The notes beneath the pieces are model-generated. The model was not told the DNA's origin. It ran no database searches and saw only the letters and a program-made list of their open reading frames with translations. Shown here piece after piece: positions 48,115 to 58,413 of a stretch of DNA of 64,000 nt; the first letter of the stretch is position 1, and each line of letters starts with the position of its first letter. The DNA comes from Roseibacillus sp. (GTDB taxonomy: Bacteria > Verrucomicrobiota > Verrucomicrobiia > Verrucomicrobiales > Akkermansiaceae). Made by a program: the position numbers and the translations under genes. The stretch lies in the NCBI GenBank assembly GCA_051251855.1, contig JBPOGI010000006.1, positions 64,001-128,000 of the forward strand, read 5' to 3'.

Positions 48115-48183
48115 TGCTGGGGTGAGGGGGTGGCATCTCAAGGCAATGATTTTTTCTTAAGACAAAAAAGATGAAGAAAGGGG

Positions 48184-48212
48184 TTGACCCAAATCATATT
48201 AATCTATAACTC
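48184..48212 (+). promoter_or_regulatory. Putative sigma70 promoter of the RNA/tRNA/RtcB unit
   Basis: TTGACC (48184) with TATAACTC at 48205-48212; A/T-rich upstream tract. Confidence 0.55.
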
Positions 48213-48265
48213 TTCTCGAACGCCGCCGCAGGAGCGGTCAAACCAGAAGGAGGGAATTTTCCATC

Positions 48266-48493
48266 ATGAACGATTTAAGCCATATCAAAACCAACTCGCT
48301 CGCAGCGGCCCAAGTGCACTGTTATCGCGGGATGTCCGGTTCGTTGATTGGCGGCATAGATGGCCTCCGGATTCAACCGACAGGGAATGCAAATGCGTTG
48401 AGTGCAAGACTCAGCTGGGAGAATGGCTCCAAAGGGATGCCCGCATTTGGTACCGAACTGAGCGAGAATAAACTGGCAAGCAGGATTACGTAA
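48266..48493 (+). CDS. Putative 75-aa leader (attenuator) peptide
   Basis: AAGGAGG at 48247-48253 before the ATG; stop codon lies within the antiterminator helix. Confidence 0.65.
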   Translation: MNDLSHIKTNSLAAAQVHCYRGMSGSLIGGIDGLRIQPTGNANALSARLSWENGSKGMPAFGTELSENKLASRIT

Positions 48494-48518
48494 ATCACTG
48501 ATTCATAAGGATTTTTAC

Positions 48519-48552
48519 GGCCCTGCTTCCCCCACGGAGGCAGGGCCTTTTT
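48519..48552 (+). terminator. Intrinsic terminator (attenuator)
   Basis: GGCCCTGCTTCC-cccac-GGAGGCAGGGCC-TTTTT. Confidence 0.85.
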
Positions 48553-48779
48553 GTATTTAACCATTTAGAAGAACCGAGAAATTGAAATAAGAACGAGAAA
48601 GGGAGAGCTCACCCAGGTTGTCGCAATTGCGATGACGACCTGCGATGCGCAGACCCTGAAAACGAATTTGAAAGACAGAACCTGAAAAAGAAGAACCGCC
48701 GCCAGCTGTAACTGGCGACGGCTCCGACAGCACCACCGGACGGAATCCGATGAATCAACTGCGCAAGATGATTCTATCT

Positions 48780-49975
48780 AAGATGATGTTTCGGTCAAGA
48801 AAGACTTAACTTCACAGATAAGTGAAGGCAGGGAATTCATGTGCTCATTTTCAGGCCCAAAAGGCTTGTTGGAAGATGTGCCAAAGGAAACATCGAAAGG
48901 TCCGCCGAGAAATCCCCGCGGCCACGGTTCGAGAGAACGGTGACGGTGTTTGTTCCTAGAAAATGAATGGAACAAGGACATTCCTGTCCTTGTTCTATTT
49001 TGGAAGGAGCAGGCCTTTGTGGTTTGCTCCTCTCCAAATCGAAGTTCTCTGGAGTTGGAGCACGTCTTACGTTGAGGCGTCGCATGCTCATGCTCACAGA
49101 GGATTTCGATTTGGAGTTATCTGAATGGCGGTCTGGCGTCATGAGATAGGCGTGTCGAAAGGCACGTAAAGGGGCAGCAACCCTGTCTGCCCGCCTTCTT
49201 CCCTTTGGGGAGAAGGACAACCAGACAAACCTAGTTCCAATGACTTCGCGGCCGGCAGCTGCGGAGTGATGCTGGAAGATGGGAGATGCTCCATTGCGGA
49301 CGGCAAGTGCTCAAGCAATGGTGGGTGTAGCAACCCACAGAGTCTTTACGCCAAACATCGACAGTTGAGAACGAAGGGGAGTCACCGAGTGCGAAGCTTA
49401 GCGGCCAAGAGCCCGGTGGCAGTCCAGTGGTGCGGGAAAGGAGACGAGTCTTTCAAACTCGAAACCTCTCCCTAGTCGCGAAGACCGTAACGTCTGTAGC
49501 AACGGACGGGACAAGAGGCGTGTGGAATTTTGTTGTTGAAAAGGCAACGGACCCACCGGACGCACGCGTCTCATAGAAGGGTATCGGATAGTACGAGAGG
49601 AAATCCACCAGACTTTAGATCTGTTCCAAACGCAAAGATGCGTCCTTGATTGTGTGAAAATGGCTTAAGCCCTGACCAAATTTTGGAATCAGGGTCTGAC
49701 GGGACTCGCAAGGTCCCCGAGGATTGATGGAATGCCGCACGGTGGAGTAGCTCTCCTTCATGGCCCAGCCGGGTCGACGGTAGGTTGAACATCGAGAAGC
49801 ACAGTCAGAAGGGAGTGCCGCCACTTCCTCACCAAAGGCAGTCAGGTAGGAATACAAAGGGTGGGCCTCTAGCGCCCTCCTTTGTGGAAGACTTGGGAAG
49901 GTGAGCCGTCGCTGGCTCGCGATAATCCAAGGCGAGTTCCTATGTGCGAGGGTGTCCTTCTCAACCCTTGCTATC
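48780..49975 (+). ncRNA. Large structured ncRNA, GOLLD-like (5' boundary uncertain)
   Basis: No credible CDS; many hairpins (48966-48999, 49006-49030, 49032-49116, 49151-49166, 49670-49694, 49701-49717, 49854-49885); 3' hairpin 49946-49971 whose loop TTCTCA complements TGAGAA 49366-49371; directly upstream of a tRNA array. Confidence 0.7.
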
Positions 49976-49991
49976 TATTTTCTAACAATGT

Positions 49992-50067
49992 GGGAGCGCA
50001 TGTGCCAGAGGGGCGATGCTGCCTTGCAAGCAGCGTGTGGCGGGTGCAAGTCCCGTCACCTCCACCA
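49992..50067 (+). tRNA. tRNA-Ala(UGC), two acceptor mismatches
   Basis: GCTGC-cttgcaa-GCAGC; G3:U70; T-loop TGCAAGT; CCA. Confidence 0.8.
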
Positions 50068-50075
50068 ATTTTTCT

Positions 50076-50151
50076 AGCGGGGAGAGTGTTGGTATCTCAA
50101 GAGGGTCTCATACGCCCTCGTCCGTGGGTTCGATTCCCACCTCCGCAACCA
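50076..50151 (+). tRNA. tRNA-Met(CAU), initiator-like
   Basis: AGGGT-ctcatac-GCCCT; A1:A72 mismatch; ...CGCAACCA. Confidence 0.8.
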
Positions 50152-50160
50152 TTTCTAAGG

Positions 50161-50234
50161 GGCGCGCAAACATTATGGTGATGTGCCTGACCTCCAATCA
50201 GGAAAACGGAGTTCGAGTCTCCGGCGTGCTACCA
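50161..50234 (+). tRNA. tRNA-Gly(UCC), atypical (C33, A73)
   Basis: CCTGA-cctccaa-TCAGG; TTCGAGT; CCA. Confidence 0.7.
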
Positions 50235-50244
50235 ATTTTTCAAA

Positions 50245-50318
50245 GGTCCATTGATGTAAAAGTAGCCTCCCTGTCTGTCGAACAGGTTGAGCCGGAGCAT
50301 TACCGGCATGGACCGCCA
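50245..50318 (+). tRNA. tRNA-Asp(GUC)
   Basis: GGTCCAT/ATGGACC, G73; CCTGT-ctgtcga-ACAGG; T-loop AGCATTA; CCA. Confidence 0.82.
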
Positions 50319-50327
50319 TTTTCAAGT

Positions 50328-50404
50328 GGGGACCATGGTGTAACGAGTAAGCATCCGGCACTGTGAACGCCGCGGAATGGGTGCAAGTCCCATTGGTCCC
50401 CCCA
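50328..50404 (+). tRNA. tRNA-His(GUG)
   Basis: G-1:C73; loop ctgtgaa; T-loop TGCAAGT; CCA. Confidence 0.88.
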
Positions 50405-50415
50405 ACTTTTGGAAA

Positions 50416-50491
50416 TGTCCTCGACGGAGCTAGTGAACCGGACGGTTTGCAAAACCGATCATGCGGGGGGCGGAACCCCGGAGGACATCCA
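50416..50491 (+). tRNA. tRNA-Cys(GCA)
   Basis: TGTCCTC/GAGGACA, U73; loop ttgcaaa; T-loop GGCGGAA; CCA. Confidence 0.78.
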
Positions 50492-50502
50492 TCTTTCTAA
50501 AT

Positions 50503-50575
50503 TCCAGCGTGGCGGAAAATCGCGCCGCTCTTGTAAAGCGGATGATGCAGGCAACCAGTCCTGTCGCTGGATCCA
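50503..50575 (+). tRNA. tRNA-Thr(UGU), aberrant T-loop
   Basis: TCCAGCG/CGCTGGA; CCGCT-cttgtaa-AGCGG; T-loop CAACCAGT; CCA. Confidence 0.72.
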
Positions 50576-50585
50576 ATTTGACAAT

Positions 50586-50660
50586 TCTTCTGTCGTCCAA
50601 AGGCGAGGACACCAGGCTACGAACCTGGAGATGCGAGTTCGAGTCTCGCCGGAAGTACCA
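50586..50660 (+). tRNA. tRNA-Arg(ACG)
   Basis: CCAGG-ctacgaa-CCTGG; TTCGAGT; CCA. Confidence 0.88.
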
Positions 50661-50673
50661 TTCTCATGAGAAC

Positions 50674-50747
50674 GCGGGCTTGGTGTAAAAGAAGCACATC
50701 TGTTTTACATGCAGATCGAGGGGGTGCGATACCTCCAGCCCGTACCA
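50674..50747 (+). tRNA. tRNA-Val(UAC)
   Basis: GCGGGCT/AGCCCGT; loop tttacat; T-loop TGCGATA; CCA. Confidence 0.82.
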
Positions 50748-50753
50748 ACTTTC

Positions 50754-50841
50754 ACGAAGTGTTCCCACCACGGTCTTCTAAGCCGTCGACGATAAACTGT
50801 GGGCAGGATGTCGAGGGGTTCGAGTCCTCCACTTCGTTCCA
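50754..50841 (+). tRNA. tRNA-Arg(UCU)-like, no D-arm, expanded variable region
   Basis: ACGAAGT/ACTTCGT; ACGGT-cttctaa-GCCGT; TTCGAGT; CCA; only 9 nt between acceptor and anticodon stems. Confidence 0.7.
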
Positions 50842-50846
50842 TTTTT

Positions 50847-50919
50847 GCCTGCGTAGCCCAACGGAAGAGGCGCCCGGCTTAGAACCGGTTCAGTGTGGGT
50901 TCGACTCCCTCCGCAGGTA
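50847..50919 (+). tRNA. tRNA-Leu(UAG), short variable loop, no encoded CCA
   Basis: GCCTGCG/CGCAGGT, A73; loop cttagaa; TTCGACT. Confidence 0.85.
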
Positions 50920-50928
50920 CTTTTCTAA

Positions 50929-51002
50929 TTCCATGTAGCCCAACTGGTAGAGGCTCTCGACTTAAGATCGAGCAAGTGTCAGTTCGACTCTGACCATGGA
51001 AA
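50929..51002 (+). tRNA. tRNA-Leu(UAA), short variable loop, no encoded CCA
   Basis: TTCCATG/CATGGAA, A73; CTCGA-cttaaga-TCGAG; TTCGACT. Confidence 0.85.
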
Positions 51003-51008
51003 TTTTCA

Positions 51009-51095
51009 GGAGTTCGAACCGGACAAGCGAGCCGGTCGCGTTTGCTAAACGCTGAGTTGCCATTTGGTAAAGGGGTGCAAGTCCTCCGAGCTCCG
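51009..51095 (+). tRNA. tRNA-Ser(GCU)
   Basis: GGAGTTC/GAGCTCC, G73; loop ttgctaa; long variable arm; T-loop TGCAAGT; followed by CCG. Confidence 0.82.
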
Positions 51096-51105
51096 CCGTT
51101 TTTTA

Positions 51106-51193
51106 GGAGGGTGCCGCTAAGTGGCTGGCAACTGGTCTTGAAAACCAGGGTAGGCATTGCGTCCTAGGGGTTCGATTCCTCCACCCTCCGCCA
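51106..51193 (+). tRNA. tRNA-Ser(UGA)
   Basis: GGAGGGT/ACCCTCC, G73; CTGGT-cttgaaa-ACCAG; long variable arm; CCA. Confidence 0.9.
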
Positions 51194-51196
51194 ATC

Positions 51197-51271
51197 ATCC
51201 CAGTCGTCTAATTGGTAAGACGCCCCGCGCCGAGCGGGGAGATGCCGCTTCGAAGTCGGCCGGGGAATCCC
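51197..51271 (+). tRNA. Degenerate tRNA-like gene (nominal anticodon CCG)
   Basis: Intact D-arm GTCT/AGAC; CCCCG-cgccgag-CGGGG with G33; two acceptor mismatches; ends TCCC. Confidence 0.55.
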
Positions 51272-51277
51272 TTTTCT

Positions 51278-51352
51278 GGGTCTGTAGCTCAATTGGTAGA
51301 GCAACCGGTTTTTACCCGGTCGATGCGGGTTCGAGACCCGACAGACCCACCA
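51278..51352 (+). tRNA. tRNA-Lys(UUU)
   Basis: GGGTCTG/CAGACCC; ACCGG-tttttac-CCGGT; CCA. Confidence 0.9.
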
Positions 51353-51361
51353 ATTTTCAAC

Positions 51362-51517
51362 GCTCCTGTCAGCTATGGGTAGGCTTTCGCACTTTCACTG
51401 CGGCAAACCGGGTTCGAATGCATTTCTTGGTTACAAGACATTCTGAACATCCAGCTCGGGGCGAGCTGCATACCGCATGGACCTGAAGGATGAAGGTCAA
51501 TCCCGGCAGGAGTACCA
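51362..51517 (+). tRNA. tRNA-Glu(UUC) with 82-nt T-loop insertion
   Basis: GCTCCTG/CAGGAGT-A-CCA; loop ctttcac; T-stem CCGGG (51408-51412) and CCCGG (51502-51506) separated by TTCGAAT plus 82 nt. Confidence 0.85.
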
Positions 51518-51524
51518 ATTTTCT

Positions 51525-51599
51525 CGGGGGGTAGTTCAATGGGAGAACGCGCGCTTTGGAAGCGTGAGGTTGTCGGTTTGAGTCCGGCTCCCCCGACCA
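51525..51599 (+). tRNA. tRNA-Pro(UGG)
   Basis: CGGGGGG/TCCCCCG-A-CCA; loop tttggaa. Confidence 0.9.
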
Positions 51600-51607
51600 C
51601 TTTTAAT

Positions 51608-51768
51608 TCCCGGATAGCTTAATCGGCAGAGCACTCGACTTTGACTCGAGCAGTGTGGGTTCGATTGCCCTCGCTCCGCTCATGCCATGCGATGTCCAGT
51701 TTCCTCCTCCGGAAACTGAGAAATTCGATGCGCATAAATGTGCGGAAGCATTCCCACTCCGGGCACCA
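51608..51768 (+). tRNA. tRNA-Gln(UUG) with 86-nt T-loop insertion
   Basis: TCCCGGA/TCCGGGC-A-CCA; CTCGA-ctttgac-TCGAG; T-stem GTGGG (51655-51659) and CCCAC (51753-51757) separated by TTCGATT plus 86 nt. Confidence 0.85.
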
Positions 51769-51789
51769 ATTTTAACCAAACATGAAACA

Positions 51790-52383
51790 ATGATAACACT
51801 AGTAAAAGCGAAAGACCTTCGCCCCATCTTGGAGACGGAACGTCTTCTCTTGCGTCCCCTTGAAATGAACGATGCTGCCGACGTGCGTCGCCTAGTCGGT
51901 GATATTCGTGTGGCCGAAAATCTAGGGCTTGTTCCGCATCCCTATCCAGAGGGACTGGCGGAAGAATGGATTTCTGGTCAGAGAGCAGAATATGAAGCGG
52001 GTAGGCATCTCACTTTTGCGATTACTACCAAAGCAACTAACGAACTGATGGGAGTAATCAGCCTTCATCCCAAAGAAGATCTTCTTCGCGCGTCAGTTGG
52101 TTACTGGGTTGGCGTTCCCTATTGGGGAAACGGCTACACCACGGAGGCTCTCAAGGAGATGCTCCGATTTGGCTTTGACGACTTTGCCCTGCAAAGAATC
52201 TTCGCTACTCACTTTGTCACCAATCCTGCTTCGGGCCGGGTGATGGAGAAAGTGGGGATGCAGCTCGAAGGCGTGATGAAGCTGGGTATCTCAAGATTTG
52301 GGGTGCTGCGCGACAGTATGCAGCGAGCGATCATCAAACCCGATTGGGAACGCCAGCGACAGGCGGAAGAACTTTACTGCTAG
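51790..52383 (+). CDS. RimJ/RimL-family GNAT N-acetyltransferase
   Basis: LETERLLLRP, VGYW, YWGNGYTTEA, NPASGRVMEKVGM. Confidence 0.92.
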   Translation: MITLVKAKDLRPILETERLLLRPLEMNDAADVRRLVGDIRVAENLGLVPHPYPEGLAEEWISGQRAEYEAGRHLTFAITTKATNELMGVISLHPKEDLLRASVGYWVGVPYWGNGYTTEALKEMLRFGFDDFALQRIFATHFVTNPASGRVMEKVGMQLEGVMKLGISRFGVLRDSMQRAIIKPDWERQRQAEELYC

Positions 52384-52455
52384 ACCGTGTCGTGTGTGAA
52401 AGCGGCGGGTGGGCACTTTGCCAGCCCACTCGCCGCAAACCCATTTAACTTACCA

Positions 52456-53220
52456 ATGAATAAAAATAGAAATGAGCAGAGGCGTTTGAAATCAGAACGT
52501 CTGGAAACGCGAGACAAAGTGATTCTTGCCCTTGAACGAGAGCGCCGAGATTTGTGGAACCAGCTCCGGAAAGCTCCTTTGGAAGAACTGAAGGAGCCTT
52601 ATCAAAAAGGCTGGGAGCGGTTCTTTGTTCTCAGCGAGCAGGCGAAGCGGAGAAAGGATGCCGAGAAGCTAGAATTGGCCCTTTCCCTTATTCGGAATTA
52701 TCAGCGCTGTTCCGTGAATCCATTTCGACACTATCGCTACAAGAGCAAGCGCATGGTGCCATGGGAGCACAATTTGAGTGGATTAAGAGCGAGAGCTTTT
52801 CTATCTCAACGGACTTCCGAGGAGGTCATGCAATACTTTCGAGTGCGTCTGCGTGAGCCTTTGACTCGAGAGCGAGTTCGAGAATTGGTTCGTTCAGGTT
52901 GGCAGGGAAAATTTTGGTTCCGCTACCCTGAGTATGCGGTTTCTCAAGTGCAGCCATTTATGATCACACACTGCCGCGTAGCTTTGCCCGAGGTGGAGAG
53001 CCGCTTGTCTGAAGTAGAGGCGACCCTTCGAAAAGATGGTAACGAATATCGGCTTCGCCATCTCAAGGATTGGGGCTTTAGCTGTTGGCGTCGGATGGAT
53101 GAAAGGGCTCAAGAAATGAAGGAGGTGCCGCTGATTCGGAGAGAGATTGAAGAAGCGATCTTTGACTTCGAAAGTAAGCAGGAGCCTAGCTACTGGTGTC
53201 CCGTTCTTTTTCTCAATTGA
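52456..53220 (+). CDS. Basic (Arg/Lys-rich) hypothetical protein
   Basis: ATG 52456; PYQKGWERFFVL motif; co-oriented within the unit. Confidence 0.75.
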   Translation: MNKNRNEQRRLKSERLETRDKVILALERERRDLWNQLRKAPLEELKEPYQKGWERFFVLSEQAKRRKDAEKLELALSLIRNYQRCSVNPFRHYRYKSKRMVPWEHNLSGLRARAFLSQRTSEEVMQYFRVRLREPLTRERVRELVRSGWQGKFWFRYPEYAVSQVQPFMITHCRVALPEVESRLSEVEATLRKDGNEYRLRHLKDWGFSCWRRMDERAQEMKEVPLIRREIEEAIFDFESKQEPSYWCPVLFLN

Positions 53221-53542
53221 AGGAGAACGCGACGTCAGTGGCTGCGCTGTGAGTTGCAATACCACGCTTTAAACTAGGAACAAACACCAGGGGATTTCGG
53301 CGGAGCTTTCGATGGGTTCTTTGACTCTGAAACGAGCAGTAGAAAACCCAAGAAATGCAGAAGAGAGCAGCATCAGTGAGAAGAAGAATCCGGCATTTAC
53401 TGGAGAAGAAAGAGAAGCAGAAAAAGAAGATTCAACCCGAGTCTCCCCGCGAGAAAACCGACTATGAACAATCGCCAGTGAATCAAATCACGGTGAGGAC
53501 GATAGAGGGTTTTTGGGGACAGCAATAAGAAGAGAAAAAGAG

Positions 53543-54142
53543 ATGAACACCGTAATGAATAAGAGCGTCGTGCTCGTGCTAAACAGGCACTGGCAAGCCG
53601 TCAATGTCACCACCCCCGCGGAGGCCTTTGCTTCCATGATGACCGATGCCGCGACAGGCTTGGATATTCGAGGGGAAGACTGGATGGTTCCGGTGAAGTG
53701 GCAGGATTGGGTCCAGTTGTCTGTTCGAGAAGGAGACTTCTCGGTAGGGACGGTGGACGGTCAGGTGCGCGTTCCGACGGTGATTGTCTTGAGTCGTTTT
53801 GACCGAGTGCCGCGCAAGCGCCTCAGTTTCTCTTTGCGTGGTCTTTGGCTGCGGGATGGGGGACGGTGTCAATATACCGGACGTTCTCTCCGGCCAGAGG
53901 AAGGCAATATCGACCACGTCATTCCTCGCTCGCGCGGGGGAGAGACTTCTTGGGAGAACTGCGTGCTTTCTGACCGCAAGGTGAACAACCGGAAAGCAGA
54001 CCGGACCCCGGAAGAAGCGGGCTTACGCCTGAATTCCGATCCGGTGCGTCCTCCGGAAGTGCCCGTCACCTATTTGCTGCGGAATCCGTTCCAAATTGCA
54101 GATTGGGAGGTCTTCCTCCCTGAACGCTCGGAAGAAAATTGA
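53543..54142 (+). CDS. HNH endonuclease
   Basis: VLVLN; RDGGRCQY; IDHVIPRSRGG.TSWEN; N.RKADRTPEEAG. Confidence 0.92.
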   Translation: MNTVMNKSVVLVLNRHWQAVNVTTPAEAFASMMTDAATGLDIRGEDWMVPVKWQDWVQLSVREGDFSVGTVDGQVRVPTVIVLSRFDRVPRKRLSFSLRGLWLRDGGRCQYTGRSLRPEEGNIDHVIPRSRGGETSWENCVLSDRKVNNRKADRTPEEAGLRLNSDPVRPPEVPVTYLLRNPFQIADWEVFLPERSEEN

Positions 54143-54224: not shown

Positions 54225-54290
54225 TCTGAAGTAGCTCAGATGGTAGAGCAACGAACTCATAATTCGTCGGTCACGGGTTCGATCCCCGTC
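54225..54290 (+). pseudogene. tRNA(CAU) fragment lacking the 3' acceptor strand
   Basis: D-arm GCTC/GAGC, ACGAA-ctcataa-TTCGT, ACGGG-TTCGATC-CCCGT, then CTAACAAAAC, which does not pair with TCTGAAG. Confidence 0.7.
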
Positions 54291-54299
54291 TAACAAAAC

Positions 54300-54437
54300 A
54301 AGCCCCTTTCGCTCCAGATTGCTTCGGCAGTCAGCTCGAACTTGGCCCAGCGAATCACGCCGCTCCTCAGTCCCGAATGTTTCCGGATGAGTGACGCGAT
54401 GATTCCCGCCGGGAAAGAGTGGAGTGGGGGAGGCTTA
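54300..54437 (+). ncRNA. Candidate structured RNA
   Basis: AAGCCCCTTTCGCTCCA pairs with TGGAGTGGGGGGAGGCTT; internal GATTGC-TTCG-GCAGTC hairpin. Confidence 0.45.
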
Positions 54438-54469
54438 CAAATTTAACCCCAAAGAAAGAAAAAGAAGAA

Positions 54470-55237
54470 ATGAATGAATGGATGATCGTAGCAGTGGTTG
54501 TCGCAGTGGCGGCCGCTCTTGGAATGGTGAAAGTGATCCTAGGCAACCGCCAGAAGGTGATCGTGAATAGTTTTGAGAAGGCCCTCATGTTCTACAATGG
54601 CAAGTTGGTGAAAGAGCTGGAAGCGGGTGAGACCGTTTTCTGGGGTCAAGGATACGAAGTGAAACGTGTCGATGGCCGTTGGCAGGAGTTGGTGGTGCAA
54701 AGCCAAGAATTCCTGACCGCCGACCGAGCTTCCGTGAAGGTGAGCGGAGTGGTGCGTTTTCGCGTGGCGGATGCGCTGAAGTATTTCGGCGAATCCCAAG
54801 CGCCTCTCGTGACCGTTCATACCGCGACTCAGATGGCACTGCGTGATGTGGTGGGAAGTCTGGGCGTGGAAGCGGTGCTGGAGCGTCAAGACGGTCTCGG
54901 TGATCGAATGAAGGCTCTGGTTGCGGCCCCAGCGGAAGCTCTTGGAATCGAAGTCAACGCTGTCGTGGCGCGTGACCTGATGCTCGCCGGTGACCTGAAG
55001 AAGGCCTACCAGGCGACTTTGAGCGCGAAACAAGAAGCTCTCGCAGGACTTGAAAAGGCCCGTGGCGAGGCGGCTGCTATACGTGTGAAAGCGAATGCTG
55101 CCCGGGTTTACGAAAAGAACCCTGCCTTGCTGCAACTCGAAGCTCTCGAGACCGTGGCGAAGCTGGGGGACGGAATGAACAACCATCTGGTGCTTGGATC
55201 ACTCGATTCCTTGCTGAAGATGGTGAAAACTGAATGA
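54470..55237 (+). CDS. SPFH/band-7 (slipin-like) protein
   Basis: N-terminal TM; QEFLTAD, LRDVVG, RDLML, LEKARGEAAAIR..ANAA, NPALLQL. Confidence 0.9.
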   Translation: MNEWMIVAVVVAVAAALGMVKVILGNRQKVIVNSFEKALMFYNGKLVKELEAGETVFWGQGYEVKRVDGRWQELVVQSQEFLTADRASVKVSGVVRFRVADALKYFGESQAPLVTVHTATQMALRDVVGSLGVEAVLERQDGLGDRMKALVAAPAEALGIEVNAVVARDLMLAGDLKKAYQATLSAKQEALAGLEKARGEAAAIRVKANAARVYEKNPALLQLEALETVAKLGDGMNNHLVLGSLDSLLKMVKTE

Positions 55238-55302: not shown

Positions 55303-56877
55303 ATGAGCCTGATTGGACAGGAAGAATTAATTGAAGCGGGTTGGGAACCTGGTCCGCACTTTGGAGAGATGATCGTGAAGCTGCGTGAATATGAAGAGCG
55401 TGGTATTTGCGATAAGAAGTATTTGCTCAAGCTGTTAGCGAAGGACTTTGGGGAACCAGAGCCTAAGTTGGCGATGCGTCCTGCGCCGGTGAAGTGCGCG
55501 GAAGCGATTCGTCCCGAGAACGATGAGGAGAAGGAGAATGTGTCGAGAGTTCGTCAGAAGATGAGCGAGCTCTTGAAGGTTCCCGTGATTTCTCAAGGGG
55601 CGGTGATGCCCGATGCGTGTCCGGCGGGAATGCATGAAGCGACCATTCCGGTGGGCGGGGCCATTGCGGTGGAAAATGCGATCATTCCAAGCGCGCATTC
55701 AGCGGATGTTTGCTGCTCCATGTTTGCCTCTTTCTACGTGGAACGCAGTAGTGTCGCCAGCGAGCTGGATGCTTTGACGGCGGCGACTCGTTTCGGTCCC
55801 GGTGGTCGTCACTATGACCACTTGGTGGAGCATACCGTGAATGAGGAAGACTTTTGGTCGAATCCGTTTTTGAGCGGGTTGAAGGACTACGGACGCATTC
55901 ACATGGCTGACCAAGGGGACGGGAATCACTTTGCCTACTTGGGTGAAGTCGAGGTGACCTCTGATGTTGTGAGCAAGCTGCACTTGGCTGGATATGGCGC
56001 GCTTGCGGATCAGCTTTCGGGTTCTGGAGAGAATCAAGAGACGCTGCGTCTTCGCGTTCTGGTGACTCATCATGGGTCGCGAGGATTGGGAGCGCATCTC
56101 TATAAGCGAGGTCAAAAGGCGGCTTTGAAGCAAACCGACAAGGCAGCGCGAGGGGTTCCTTCGGCAGCGGCGTGGTTGGATGCGCGCAGTGATGACGGCC
56201 GTGCTTATTGGGAGGCTTTGCAATATGTGGGTCTTTGGACTCGTGCCAACCACGAGGCTATCCATGAGCGTTTCTTGAACAACATCGGAGCGGAAAAGCT
56301 GGCGAGCTTTGGCAATGAACATAACTTCGTGTGGAAGCGTGGGGATGTCTTCATGCATGGCAAGGGAGCGACTCCAGCTTGGAAAGACTCCGATGGGCGT
56401 CCGCTGTTAGGATTGATTCCGCTCAATATGGCGGAGCCGATTCTGATGGTGCTGGGCGGCGACCAGAGCGAGTTCCTTTCCTTTGCTCCTCACGGTGCCG
56501 GCCGAAATGTTTCCCGAACCAAGTTGCGTGGTCGTTACGGCGACGAGGCCACTCGTCAGAATGTGATTGCGCATCATACCCGGGACATCGACGTGCGCTG
56601 GTATTGTGGTAAGGCGGACCTGAGCGAAACTCCGGTGGCCTACAAAAATGCCGACCAGGTGAAGGCGCAGATTCAGGAATTCGGCCTCGCGGAAATCGTG
56701 GCTGAGATTCGTCCTCTGGGATGCATCATGGCCGGCGAGAGCCCTCGGATGGATTGGAAGAAGTATCGCAAGGAGCAGTTAAGTCCGAAGCAGAAGCGTC
56801 AGATTCAGCATCGTGCGGAGCGACGTAAGACCAAGCAAGGTCTCGGGAATTGGGACGAGCCCGATTCCTTAGATTGA
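55303..56877 (+). CDS. rtcB: RtcB-family RNA ligase
   Basis: MPDAC, ADVCCS, GDGNHF, HHGSRG, HNF, KGATP, HGAGR, ETP.AYK. Confidence 0.93.
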   Translation: MSLIGQEELIEAGWEPGPHFGEMIVKLREYEERGICDKKYLLKLLAKDFGEPEPKLAMRPAPVKCAEAIRPENDEEKENVSRVRQKMSELLKVPVISQGAVMPDACPAGMHEATIPVGGAIAVENAIIPSAHSADVCCSMFASFYVERSSVASELDALTAATRFGPGGRHYDHLVEHTVNEEDFWSNPFLSGLKDYGRIHMADQGDGNHFAYLGEVEVTSDVVSKLHLAGYGALADQLSGSGENQETLRLRVLVTHHGSRGLGAHLYKRGQKAALKQTDKAARGVPSAAAWLDARSDDGRAYWEALQYVGLWTRANHEAIHERFLNNIGAEKLASFGNEHNFVWKRGDVFMHGKGATPAWKDSDGRPLLGLIPLNMAEPILMVLGGDQSEFLSFAPHGAGRNVSRTKLRGRYGDEATRQNVIAHHTRDIDVRWYCGKADLSETPVAYKNADQVKAQIQEFGLAEIVAEIRPLGCIMAGESPRMDWKKYRKEQLSPKQKRQIQHRAERRKTKQGLGNWDEPDSLD

Positions 56878-56883
56878 TGGACG

Positions 56884-58413
56884 CTAATCCCGAGTGCCGC
56901 GGGGATCCTTTTTGGGGACCTTGAGTTCTGTCCGAAGACGCGTGAGCTCTTTTTCGAGAGTCTTGCGCGTTTCAGCATAGCTCGGGTCCTCAAAAACGCT
57001 CTTCAATTCATGCGGATCAGTTTGGAGGTCGAAGAGTTGCCAGTAGTCATCGGGCTTGTAGAGATGGACCAGTTTGTAGCGGTCGGTAATGACGCCATAG
57101 TGGCGTGGCACGCTGTGGACGCCGGGAAACTCGTAGTAGTGATAGTAGAAGCTCTTTCGCCAGTCTTCGGGTGTTTCTCCCTTGAAAAGAGGAAGCAGGC
57201 TTTGGCCCTGCATGTGGCTGGGGACGGGAATGTCGGCGGCTTCGAGGAAGGTTTCGGCGAAGTCCAAGTTGGAAACGATGTCTTTGTTCACGCTGCCGGG
57301 CGCAATGACGTCGGGCCAGCGCACGAGGAGAGGTGTTCGCACCGATTCTTCATAAATCCAGCGCTTATCAAACCAGCCGTGCTCGCCAAGGTAGAAGCCT
57401 TGGTCGGAGGAGTAAACGACGATGGTGTTTTCTCCTAAACCAGATTCGTCCAAATAGTCTAACAGTTTTCCCACGCTGTCATCGACGGAAGCAATGCAGG
57501 CCAAGTAGTCGTGCATGTAACGTTGATACTTCCAGCGAACCAATTCTTCTCCTTCGAGATTGGCTGCTAAGAATTTCTCGTTACGAGGTTGATAGTAGGC
57601 GTGCCATTGGTCGCGGACGGACTTGGGAATGCTGCTGTTGATTTTCAGTTTGAGGTCGCCCTCATGCATGGTCTTGGCGAGGGACATGTCTTGGTTTCGT
57701 TCGCCGGGGCCACGGCCTGAGTAGTCATCGAAGAGTGTCTCTGGTTCGGGGTAAGGTTTGCCGTTATCATGATCGAGTTTGTCGACGTGGGGCGACCAGT
57801 TGCGATGGGGCGCCTTGTGCTGGCACATCAGGAGAAAGGGTTTGGAGGGGTCGCGTTTTTCCTTCAACCATTCCAGACTGAGGTCGGTCACGATATCGCT
57901 GACGTAACCCTTTTCGCGAACGTCTTCTCCATTGAGAATCATCTTGGGGTTGTAGTATTGCCCTTGGCCGGGGAGGACTTGCCAGTGGTCAAAACCGGTG
58001 GGAGAGCTGCCCAAGTGCCACTTGCCGATGACGGCGGTTTGGTAGCCGTTGGCTTGTAGCTGTTTGGGGAAGGTGACTTGCGAGCCATCGAATTTGCAGC
58101 CGGCATTGTCGACGAAGCCGTTGATGTGATTGTAGGTGCCGGACATGATGGTGGCCCGGCTGGGTCCGCAGATGGAGTTCGTTACAAGGCAACGGTCGAA
58201 GCGCATCCCTTCCTTGGCGAGGCGATCAATGTTGGGAGTTTTGTTACGGTTCGAGCCATAGGCGCTGATGGCTTGGTAAGCGTGGTCGTCCGAAAAGATG
58301 AAGACGATGTTGGGCTGCTCCTTGGCGACGAGTAAGCCACTAGAGGCGAAAGCGAGTAAGGCGCTACTCAGGACGGCTAAAGAGGATCGAAAGAAAGAAG
58401 AGCGAGGAATCAT
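56884..58413 (-). CDS. Sulfatase (secreted)
   Basis: [26 protein letters not shown]. Confidence 0.95.

Follow-up and report, generated by a model that had tools for sequence, protein, structure and literature searches.

A candidate ribosome-mediated attenuator ahead of a GOLLD RNA, tRNA and RtcB cassette in Roseibacillus

The leader and its GOLLD cassette

We analyzed a stretch of 64,000 nucleotides (nt) from a Roseibacillus sp. genome (NCBI GenBank assembly GCA_051251855.1, contig JBPOGI010000006.1, positions 64,001 to 128,000 of the forward strand; hereafter the window) and studied a candidate transcription attenuator within it. A promoter-like site, a short open reading frame (ORF), a hairpin spanning the end of this frame and an intrinsic terminator stand ahead of a GOLLD RNA, an array of tRNA genes and a co-oriented set of protein genes that ends with an RtcB RNA ligase (Table 1). 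A preliminary description, made from the letters alone, had read the leader as an attenuator sensing general translation failure, with completed translation giving termination and stalling giving read-through into the RNA genes. The parts that it named are present: the Shine-Dalgarno-like motif, the ATG and the TAA of the 75-codon frame lie where it placed them, and the terminator is as strong as it claimed, with nine G-C pairs among the 12 of its stem.

Table 1. Features of the leader and the cassette in the window, with positions counted from the first letter of the window
Feature	Coordinates	Strand	Details
Promoter-like site	48184..48210	+	TTGACC 48184-48189, 15-nt spacer, TATAAC 48205-48210; A-rich stretch before
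Shine-Dalgarno-like motif	48247..48253	+	AAGGAGG, 12 nt ahead of ATG (48266); read from sequence
Leader ORF	48266..48493	+	75 codons plus TAA (stop 48491-48493); from ORF list
Antiterminator hairpin	48478..48528	+	Two helices, from complementarity and folding; stop 48491-48493 inside 5' half
Intrinsic terminator	48519..48552	+	Stem 48519-48547, 12 bp (9 G-C), 5-nt loop, then TTTTT 48548-48552
Spacer between terminator and conserved RNA	48553..48663	+	Poorly conserved in comparison across 7 loci
GOLLD RNA with extended 5' domain	48664..49987	+	Rfam RF02032 match at 49513-49967
Array of 10 tRNA genes	50076..51599	+	Met, Gly-UCC, His, Arg-ACG, Val-UAC, Leu-UAG, Leu-UAA, Ser-UGA, Lys-UUU, Pro-UGG
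GNAT acetyltransferase	51655-52383	+	Gene after tRNA array
277-aa protein of unknown kind	52387-53220	+	
HNH endonuclease	53513-54142	+	
SPFH/Band-7 protein	54419-55237	+	
RtcB RNA ligase	55303-56877	+	Last co-oriented gene

GOLLD ranks among the largest and most elaborate RNAs of bacteria. In an Rfam scan with a permissive cutoff, the RNA after the terminator matches the GOLLD model along its whole length (positions 1-416 of 416; 116.3 bits, E 2e-31) without reaching the gathering score of 150, which the homologous RNAs of two related genomes, G168 (153.1 bits) and G342 (165.4 bits), exceed; we treated the window RNA as a divergent GOLLD. Homology to the RNAs of other genera extends over 48664-49979, the conserved RNA measuring about 1.3 kb as a whole, and the part at 49027-49987 is 90.9% identical to that of G004, a genome of the same genus as the window.

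We searched for GOLLD in about 250 genomes of the verrucomicrobial family and found it in nine genomes across four genera. The family sample contributed seven of its 151 genomes; denser sampling of single genera gave 4 of 42 in the genus of G018 (one new, G312), 2 of 25 in the genus of G168 (one new, G342) and 1 of 31 in the genus of G106 (none new), and none of 150 genomes sampled from the rest of the phylum had a match. All nine loci share a terminator at an equivalent position ahead of the conserved RNA. Seven of these, labeled G000 (the window), G004, G018, G050, G312, G106 and G168, have complete upstream DNA and represent all four genera, and each shows the same order of a promoter-like site, an ORF, a stop codon inside an antiterminator and a terminator. 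In G342 the ORF is cut by the contig edge. In G086, whose GOLLD match scores lowest (98 bits), the end of a transposase-like frame (L016 1-135), apparently part of an insertion sequence at the contig edge, has taken the place of the leader ORF and of the antiterminator 5' strand, with the junction right at the stop codon; the inner hairpin and the terminator remain.

Antiterminator and terminator folds

In silico, the elements of an attenuator are present at the locus, exclude one another and are conserved among its relatives. When the window sequence was folded without the terminator 3' arm (48461-48535), both the minimum-energy and the centroid structure were a two-helix hairpin of -20.0 kcal/mol, and the alternative helix over the last codons and the stop, sketched in the preliminary description, was thereby borne out: AAGCAGG (48478-48484) pairs with CCTGCTT (48522-48528), and CGTAAA (48489-48494) with TTTACG (48514-48519). 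Only 1 of 200 dinucleotide shuffles was as stable (mean -12.2, standard deviation 2.6; z = -3.06). The terminator stem reaches -25.0 kcal/mol alone and wins in the fold of the full sequence, while two loop-proximal C residues are left free as a toehold. The terminator 5' arm stabilized the upstream RNA by -11.7 kcal/mol in the window and by -9.8 to -12.8 kcal/mol in related loci, with G312 at -16.2. As controls, we used 168 ordinary terminators located behind long ORFs in the same genome, for which the mean gain was -4.4 kcal/mol (standard deviation 3.1, fifth percentile -9.8) and 4.2% reached -10 or lower; the gain of the antiterminator is within the top 5% or so of these controls.

The same competition was found beyond the genus. 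In folds that lack the 3' arm, the end of the frame, including its last codons and the stop region, pairs with the terminator 5' arm in all seven complete loci and in the partial G342, at -18.7 to -28.2 kcal/mol, and the stop codon is inside the antiterminator 5' half in every complete locus. The pairing persisted when whole leaders were folded (mean pairing probability 0.50-0.74 in six loci). The helix sequences vary by genus (AAGCAGG, CAGCAGGG, GGTCTGCAT and TCAGTATAG); between the genus of the window (g1) and that of G018 (g11), one compensatory change has turned an A-U into a C-G pair. The terminator arms are identical in the window and G004, and the stop precedes the T-run by 55-61 nt in six loci and, in G106, by 83 nt. 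No anti-antiterminator was found in the leader folds, and the leader (48220-48553) matched no Rfam family even at E up to 10.

Leader frame, promoters and cassette content

Every complete locus has a leader ORF that begins with ATG, the lengths being 75 codons in the window, 71 in G004, 64 in both G018 and G050, 49 in G312, 76 in G106 and 72 in G168. For six loci, G312 being left out, we compared these lengths with dinucleotide shuffles of the promoter-to-terminator region: the window length was matched in 51 of 2000 shuffles, and across the six loci the observed length was attained in 51, 33, 62, 70, 110 and 9 of 2000 each (0.5-5.5%). A chance origin of the ORFs across four unalignable lineages thus appears very unlikely. 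The encoded peptides have drifted apart, with 16-27% identity to the window across genera and Met1 as the sole invariant residue. In the comparison of G018 and G050, both 64 codons long, the ORF DNA is 52% identical with zero gap columns, and first, second and third codon positions differ to a nearly equal extent (28, 27 and 38 of 65); identity is higher in the promoter region, at 73%, and in the attenuator, at 78%. Such a pattern would be expected if what counts is translation up to a fixed end, irrespective of the product.

Closer relatives of the leader peptide were confined to the genus, at 67-80% identity: four proteins and one of 40 relatives' genomes, with 26 invariant columns among five sequences. 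A genome scan with the leader peptide recovered the locus of Roseibacillus persicicus alone, plus four short chance-like matches; the same locus is thus present in a named, cultured relative (strain KCTC 12988). The peptide matched no Pfam or PHROG family, and scans for DNA relatives gave two weak, probably unrelated loci in metagenomes and none in viruses. Within the genus, the AAGGAGG motif is kept in G004, and high conservation of the leader was noted for 48258-48375 and 48430-48553. Sensing of the stop codon by a specific release factor was ruled out, the stops of the seven loci being TAA, TAA, TAG, TAA, TGA, TAG and TAG.

The window leader contains all 20 amino acids in 41 distinct codons and has no regulatory run. 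The preliminary description had already remarked that the peptide has no run of a single amino acid, and its one Ala-Ala-Ala uses three different codons and is not retained in other genera. An amino-acid-specific attenuator of the trp, his, leu, thr, phe or ilv type was rejected, as there is no conserved codon run and no Rfam leader family matched at E up to 10. The numbers of different amino acids in the seven leaders are 20, 19, 20, 19, 20, 20 and 19; they total 137, in comparison with 128.6 (standard deviation 2.9) for random open frames of equal base composition (P = 0.0013); the test was devised post hoc, and diversity above random is suggestive only. Having 19-20 amino acids per leader fits with general rather than amino-acid-specific sensing. 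Rare codons were not significantly enriched in the leader, which falls on the 9th percentile of 75-codon windows.

When the DNA up to the first tRNA was scanned with relaxed settings, starting at the promoter, the TTGACC-15-TATAAC site of the leader, which the preliminary description does not mention, was the best plus-strand match (10/12) in the window, and the leader promoter was the best such match in all five g1 and g11 loci; the motif stands at the corresponding position in G004, G018, G050 and G312. A promoter of the array's own, downstream of the terminator, had been named in the preliminary description as evidence that would speak against attenuation. Across the seven loci, consensus scans of the region from the terminator to the first tRNA found no positionally conserved promoter-like motif, only scattered weak matches of 8-9/12; such scans let other promoter types escape, and a stricter one misses even the leader promoter. 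On the plus strand from 48553 onward, there is no strong terminator-like site before 56888-56904, just after RtcB, and only two weak five-pair sites at 49630 and 51248. A further element that resembles a terminator on the plus strand splits the GOLLD 5' domain at 48970-48995; it is a perfect hairpin of 26 nt whose tails are T-rich on both strands. G004 lacks it at the matching place and has three similar copies in its tRNA-array region, and the element has the appearance of a small mobile repeat of palindromic type.

The GOLLD RNA of the window adjoins tRNA genes, as expected of these RNAs. The genome has 50 tRNA genes in total, and the array can be regarded as spare because all ten of its anticodons have copies elsewhere in the genome; judged from this gene content, the cargo of the cassette is dispensable for routine growth. 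The composition of the array differs even between two species of the genus, and the order of the GNAT, unknown, HNH, SPFH and RtcB genes is the same in G004. Two partial Rfam tRNA matches on the plus strand, at 51611-51678 (37.1 bits, overlapping the start of the GNAT ORF) and 54230-54291 (50.9 bits), were not called by ARAGORN and may be tRNA-like elements or pseudo-tRNAs in the cassette.

Homology between the window and G004 begins at 48161, near the leader promoter. The leader is preceded by a peptidyl-prolyl isomerase gene in the window, by another gene of opposite orientation in G004 and, by eye, by what resembles the end of an adenosylhomocysteinase gene in G312. Since the upstream gene differs by species, the cassette sits at different chromosomal sites, and the GOLLD, tRNA and RtcB cassette may be mobile.

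GOLLD has been described as a molecule of unknown function whose cage-like structure is solved (10.1101/2024.12.08.627333, accessible text). Phages, prophages and Mycobacterium have been reported to carry it next to tRNA arrays and HNH genes, and tRNAs can sit in its linker (Kretsch et al. 10.1101/2024.12.08.627333; Behra et al. PMC6582537; accessible text of both). The loci studied here resemble those in having an adjoining tRNA array and HNH gene, in the varied chromosomal sites of the cassette among species and in tRNA genes embedded in the GOLLD match, namely Arg-UCU in G168 (L017 2623-2694) and Ile-AAU in G106 (L018 2837-2909). They differ in the RtcB, GNAT and SPFH genes that follow and in the length of the conserved RNA, about 1.3 kb in comparison with the roughly 800 nt quoted in the accessible text, which also mentions no upstream leader ORF or attenuator (10.1101/2024.12.08.627333, PMC6582537). 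A blastn search of phage records for GOLLD homologs gave no match.

A candidate mechanism and its alternatives

We propose that the leader is probably a ribosome-mediated transcription attenuator, of the general kind known from BmrB, that gates the cassette of GOLLD RNA, spare tRNAs and RtcB. Transcription would begin at the conserved promoter near 48184-48210, and a ribosome would translate the 75-codon leader. A ribosome keeping pace with the RNA polymerase would reach the last codons and the stop while the polymerase makes the next 30-60 nt; its footprint would then hide the antiterminator 5' strand (48478-48494), the terminator would fold and the transcript would end. With a lagging ribosome, whether delayed by poor initiation or slowed at one or another of the 41 codons that together specify all 20 amino acids, the antiterminator would form first and hold the terminator 5' arm, and the polymerase would proceed into GOLLD and the tRNA array, probably as far as RtcB. 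In this scheme, we infer the translation of the leader, the timing, the read-through and the extent of the operon. Of the translation coupling claimed in the preliminary description, the architecture stood, with one layout in all seven complete loci of four genera, a frame that is kept while its peptide is not, and 19-20 amino acids in each leader; the coupling itself met limits in the dominance of the terminator, in the ranking of complementary sites and in the partial overlap of the hairpins in two genera.

Classical leaders, such as trpL, hisL, thrL, leuL, pheL and ilv, have 14-32 codons with runs of the regulatory amino acid, and when they are left untranslated, 1:2 pairing leads to termination. 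The present leader shares with them a leader frame, here presumably translated, a competing terminator and a stop codon placed such that a terminating ribosome can mask the antiterminator strand; it differs in its length, in lacking a run, in containing all 20 amino acids, in the number of pairing segments, three instead of four, and in its RNA-gene cargo. The bmrB leader of the Bacillus subtilis bmrBCD operon is more alike. According to the accessible text of its description (Reilman et al. 2014, PMC4191407), it has 53 codons without a codon run, and efficient translation leads to the stronger terminator and slowed translation to the antiterminator. Common to both are a long leader ORF with no single-codon run (49-76 codons here), an intrinsic terminator more stable than the competing antiterminator and, as we propose for the present leader, a ribosome serving as a general sensor of translation speed. 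As far as the same text goes, the bmrB terminator lies inside the coding region, whereas the present one follows the stop at a distance of 28 nt; an anti-antiterminator is predicted for bmrB and none was found here; and the bmrB cargo is a multidrug ABC transporter. The two leaders have no sequence relationship and belong to different phyla. They also appear to differ in the effect of losing translation: abolishing leader translation lowered bmrB expression (PMC4191407, accessible text), whereas the folds found here suggest that knocking out the start codon would turn the cassette on, although the outcome would depend on kinetics beyond the folding energies.

Several results weigh against a ribosome-mediated attenuator. 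At equilibrium, the terminator 5' arm of the window pairs with the 3' arm at a probability of 0.98 (0.98-0.99 in g1), and in that genus the terminator, at -25.0 kcal/mol, far outweighs the antiterminator gain of -11.7; because of this dominance, read-through could be small even without a ribosome. A duplex-rank test placed the ORF end first among complements of the terminator 5' arm in two of six loci only (G018 and G050). The window has a site, 190 nt further upstream, that scored -15.2 in comparison with -13.2 for the ORF end, and G106 and G168 had 32 and 18 better windows elsewhere; in these two loci, the main stop-codon hairpin abuts the terminator, its extension alone competes, and a complete fold can hold both. 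The number of arm nucleotides paired to the ORF end was uninformative, as 43% of the controls reach eight or more. Covariation among homologs, to which the preliminary description had looked for confirmation, is weak column-wise, consisting of the one compensatory pair, and of two alignments one lacked a consensus structure; covariation over all four genera together was not obtained because the attenuators of the other two genera (g12 and g15) could not be aligned to those of g1 and g11. No Shine-Dalgarno-like motif comparable to that of g1 was seen by eye ahead of the ATG in the other genera. Between the two g1 genomes, leader divergence is 0.12, 0.17 and 0.19 at first, second and third codon positions, while third positions of the neighboring GNAT, HNH and SPFH genes differ by 0.45-0.57, which points to a constraint at the nucleotide level beyond an open frame that the simple model does not require. 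A codon match to the array tRNAs was rejected in the window (21 of 75 codons in comparison with a genome expectation of 25.9%; p = 0.69), and the amino-acid diversity is fragile, with P = 0.055 for the least favorable locus of each genus. A separate GOLLD promoter may lie downstream of the terminator, although none was found in the scans. Six RNA library runs contained 9-14% of the sampled words, and the relatives' contigs assembled from four RNA runs cover 48619-50093 only, thus the GOLLD part, with none on the leader.

Several of these points are also what one would expect of an ordinary small gene, a fast-evolving cassette protein of 75 amino acids with its own promoter and terminator, in which case GOLLD and the tRNAs would be transcribed from an unrecognized downstream promoter and the alternative hairpin would be incidental or serve mRNA stability. 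Such a gene would account for the promoter-like site, the Shine-Dalgarno motif and the strong terminator, for the 26 invariant peptide columns within the genus and for the mixed duplex ranking and the thermodynamic dominance of the terminator in g1; a downstream promoter could also have been missed by scans whose stricter form overlooks the leader promoter. We nevertheless consider it unlikely, as across genera the peptide retains nothing but Met1, the changes in the g11 pair are nearly equal over the codon positions, the conservation in g1 is at the nucleotide level rather than of a protein-coding type and no Pfam or PHROG family was matched, whereas an antiterminator within the top 5% or so recurs with different sequences in four genera and the unit always stands directly ahead of GOLLD, the terminator in nine of nine loci. 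The nucleotide-level constraint in g1 could instead reflect a protein-independent RNA switch, in which the leader of about 300 nt is a structured sensor, riboswitch-like or sensing tRNAs like a T-box, the terminator and antiterminator are its expression platform and the frame is merely tolerated. The low divergence of the g1 leader at all codon positions, a Shine-Dalgarno motif visible in that genus only and the tRNAs among the cargo agree with this idea. We consider it improbable given the lack of an Rfam match over 48220-48553, the frames of 49-76 codons in all seven loci, whose lengths the shuffles rarely attained, and the stop codon that is always inside the antiterminator 5' half; the g11 leaders, diverged to 52% identity with zero indels, also fit a constraint on the frame better than an aptamer.

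The last alternative places the control on the opposite strand: the terminator would mainly part the leader transcript from a convergent antisense transcript, and entry into GOLLD would be set by an antisense RNA starting from 48798..48771 on the minus strand and not by the ribosome. A minus-strand TTGACC-16-TAGAAT/TATCAT site (10/12) is found at the homologous place in the window (48798..48771), L011 (755..728) and L021 (868..841) and is the sole strict-scan match there; in the window it is followed by a hairpin (48725..48692, minus strand) and a T-run, and a full-length match to ctRNA_pGA1 is weak (E 0.0016; 30.2 bits, where the gathering score is 45). The open frame and the placement of the stop within the hairpin are left unexplained by this account. 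The T-run after the minus-strand hairpin is poor in g11, where no terminator was called, the motif was not found by eye in G168 and G106, and the GGTCAA letters could be kept as part of the GOLLD 5' domain. As antisense control could also coexist with an attenuator instead of replacing it, we regard it as a highly improbable explanation of the leader. The position of the minus-strand site is kept in g1 and g11 despite different spacers, and an antisense RNA of about 80 nt may be made against the start of the GOLLD precursor.

Returning to the ribosome-mediated attenuator, we also considered a more specific form, possible but doubtful, in which the leader is a pan-amino-acid meter of ribosome lag: an open frame containing every amino acid, through which any shortage or cleavage of tRNAs or any brake on elongation would open a mobile translation-damage cassette of spare tRNAs, RtcB resealing cut tRNAs and the GOLLD cage. 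Our literature searches found no paper describing an attenuator ahead of GOLLD or of a tRNA array, and GOLLD, spare tRNAs and RtcB appear to be new as the cargo of an attenuator. If the lag-meter form were true, GOLLD would be tied to the response to translation damage. If, more generally, a switch that reads ribosome elongation gates GOLLD together with the spare tRNAs and RtcB, translation stress or tRNA damage would be a concrete, testable condition for the production of GOLLD. Leader-peptide attenuation would then extend from amino-acid and resistance operons to RNA genes.

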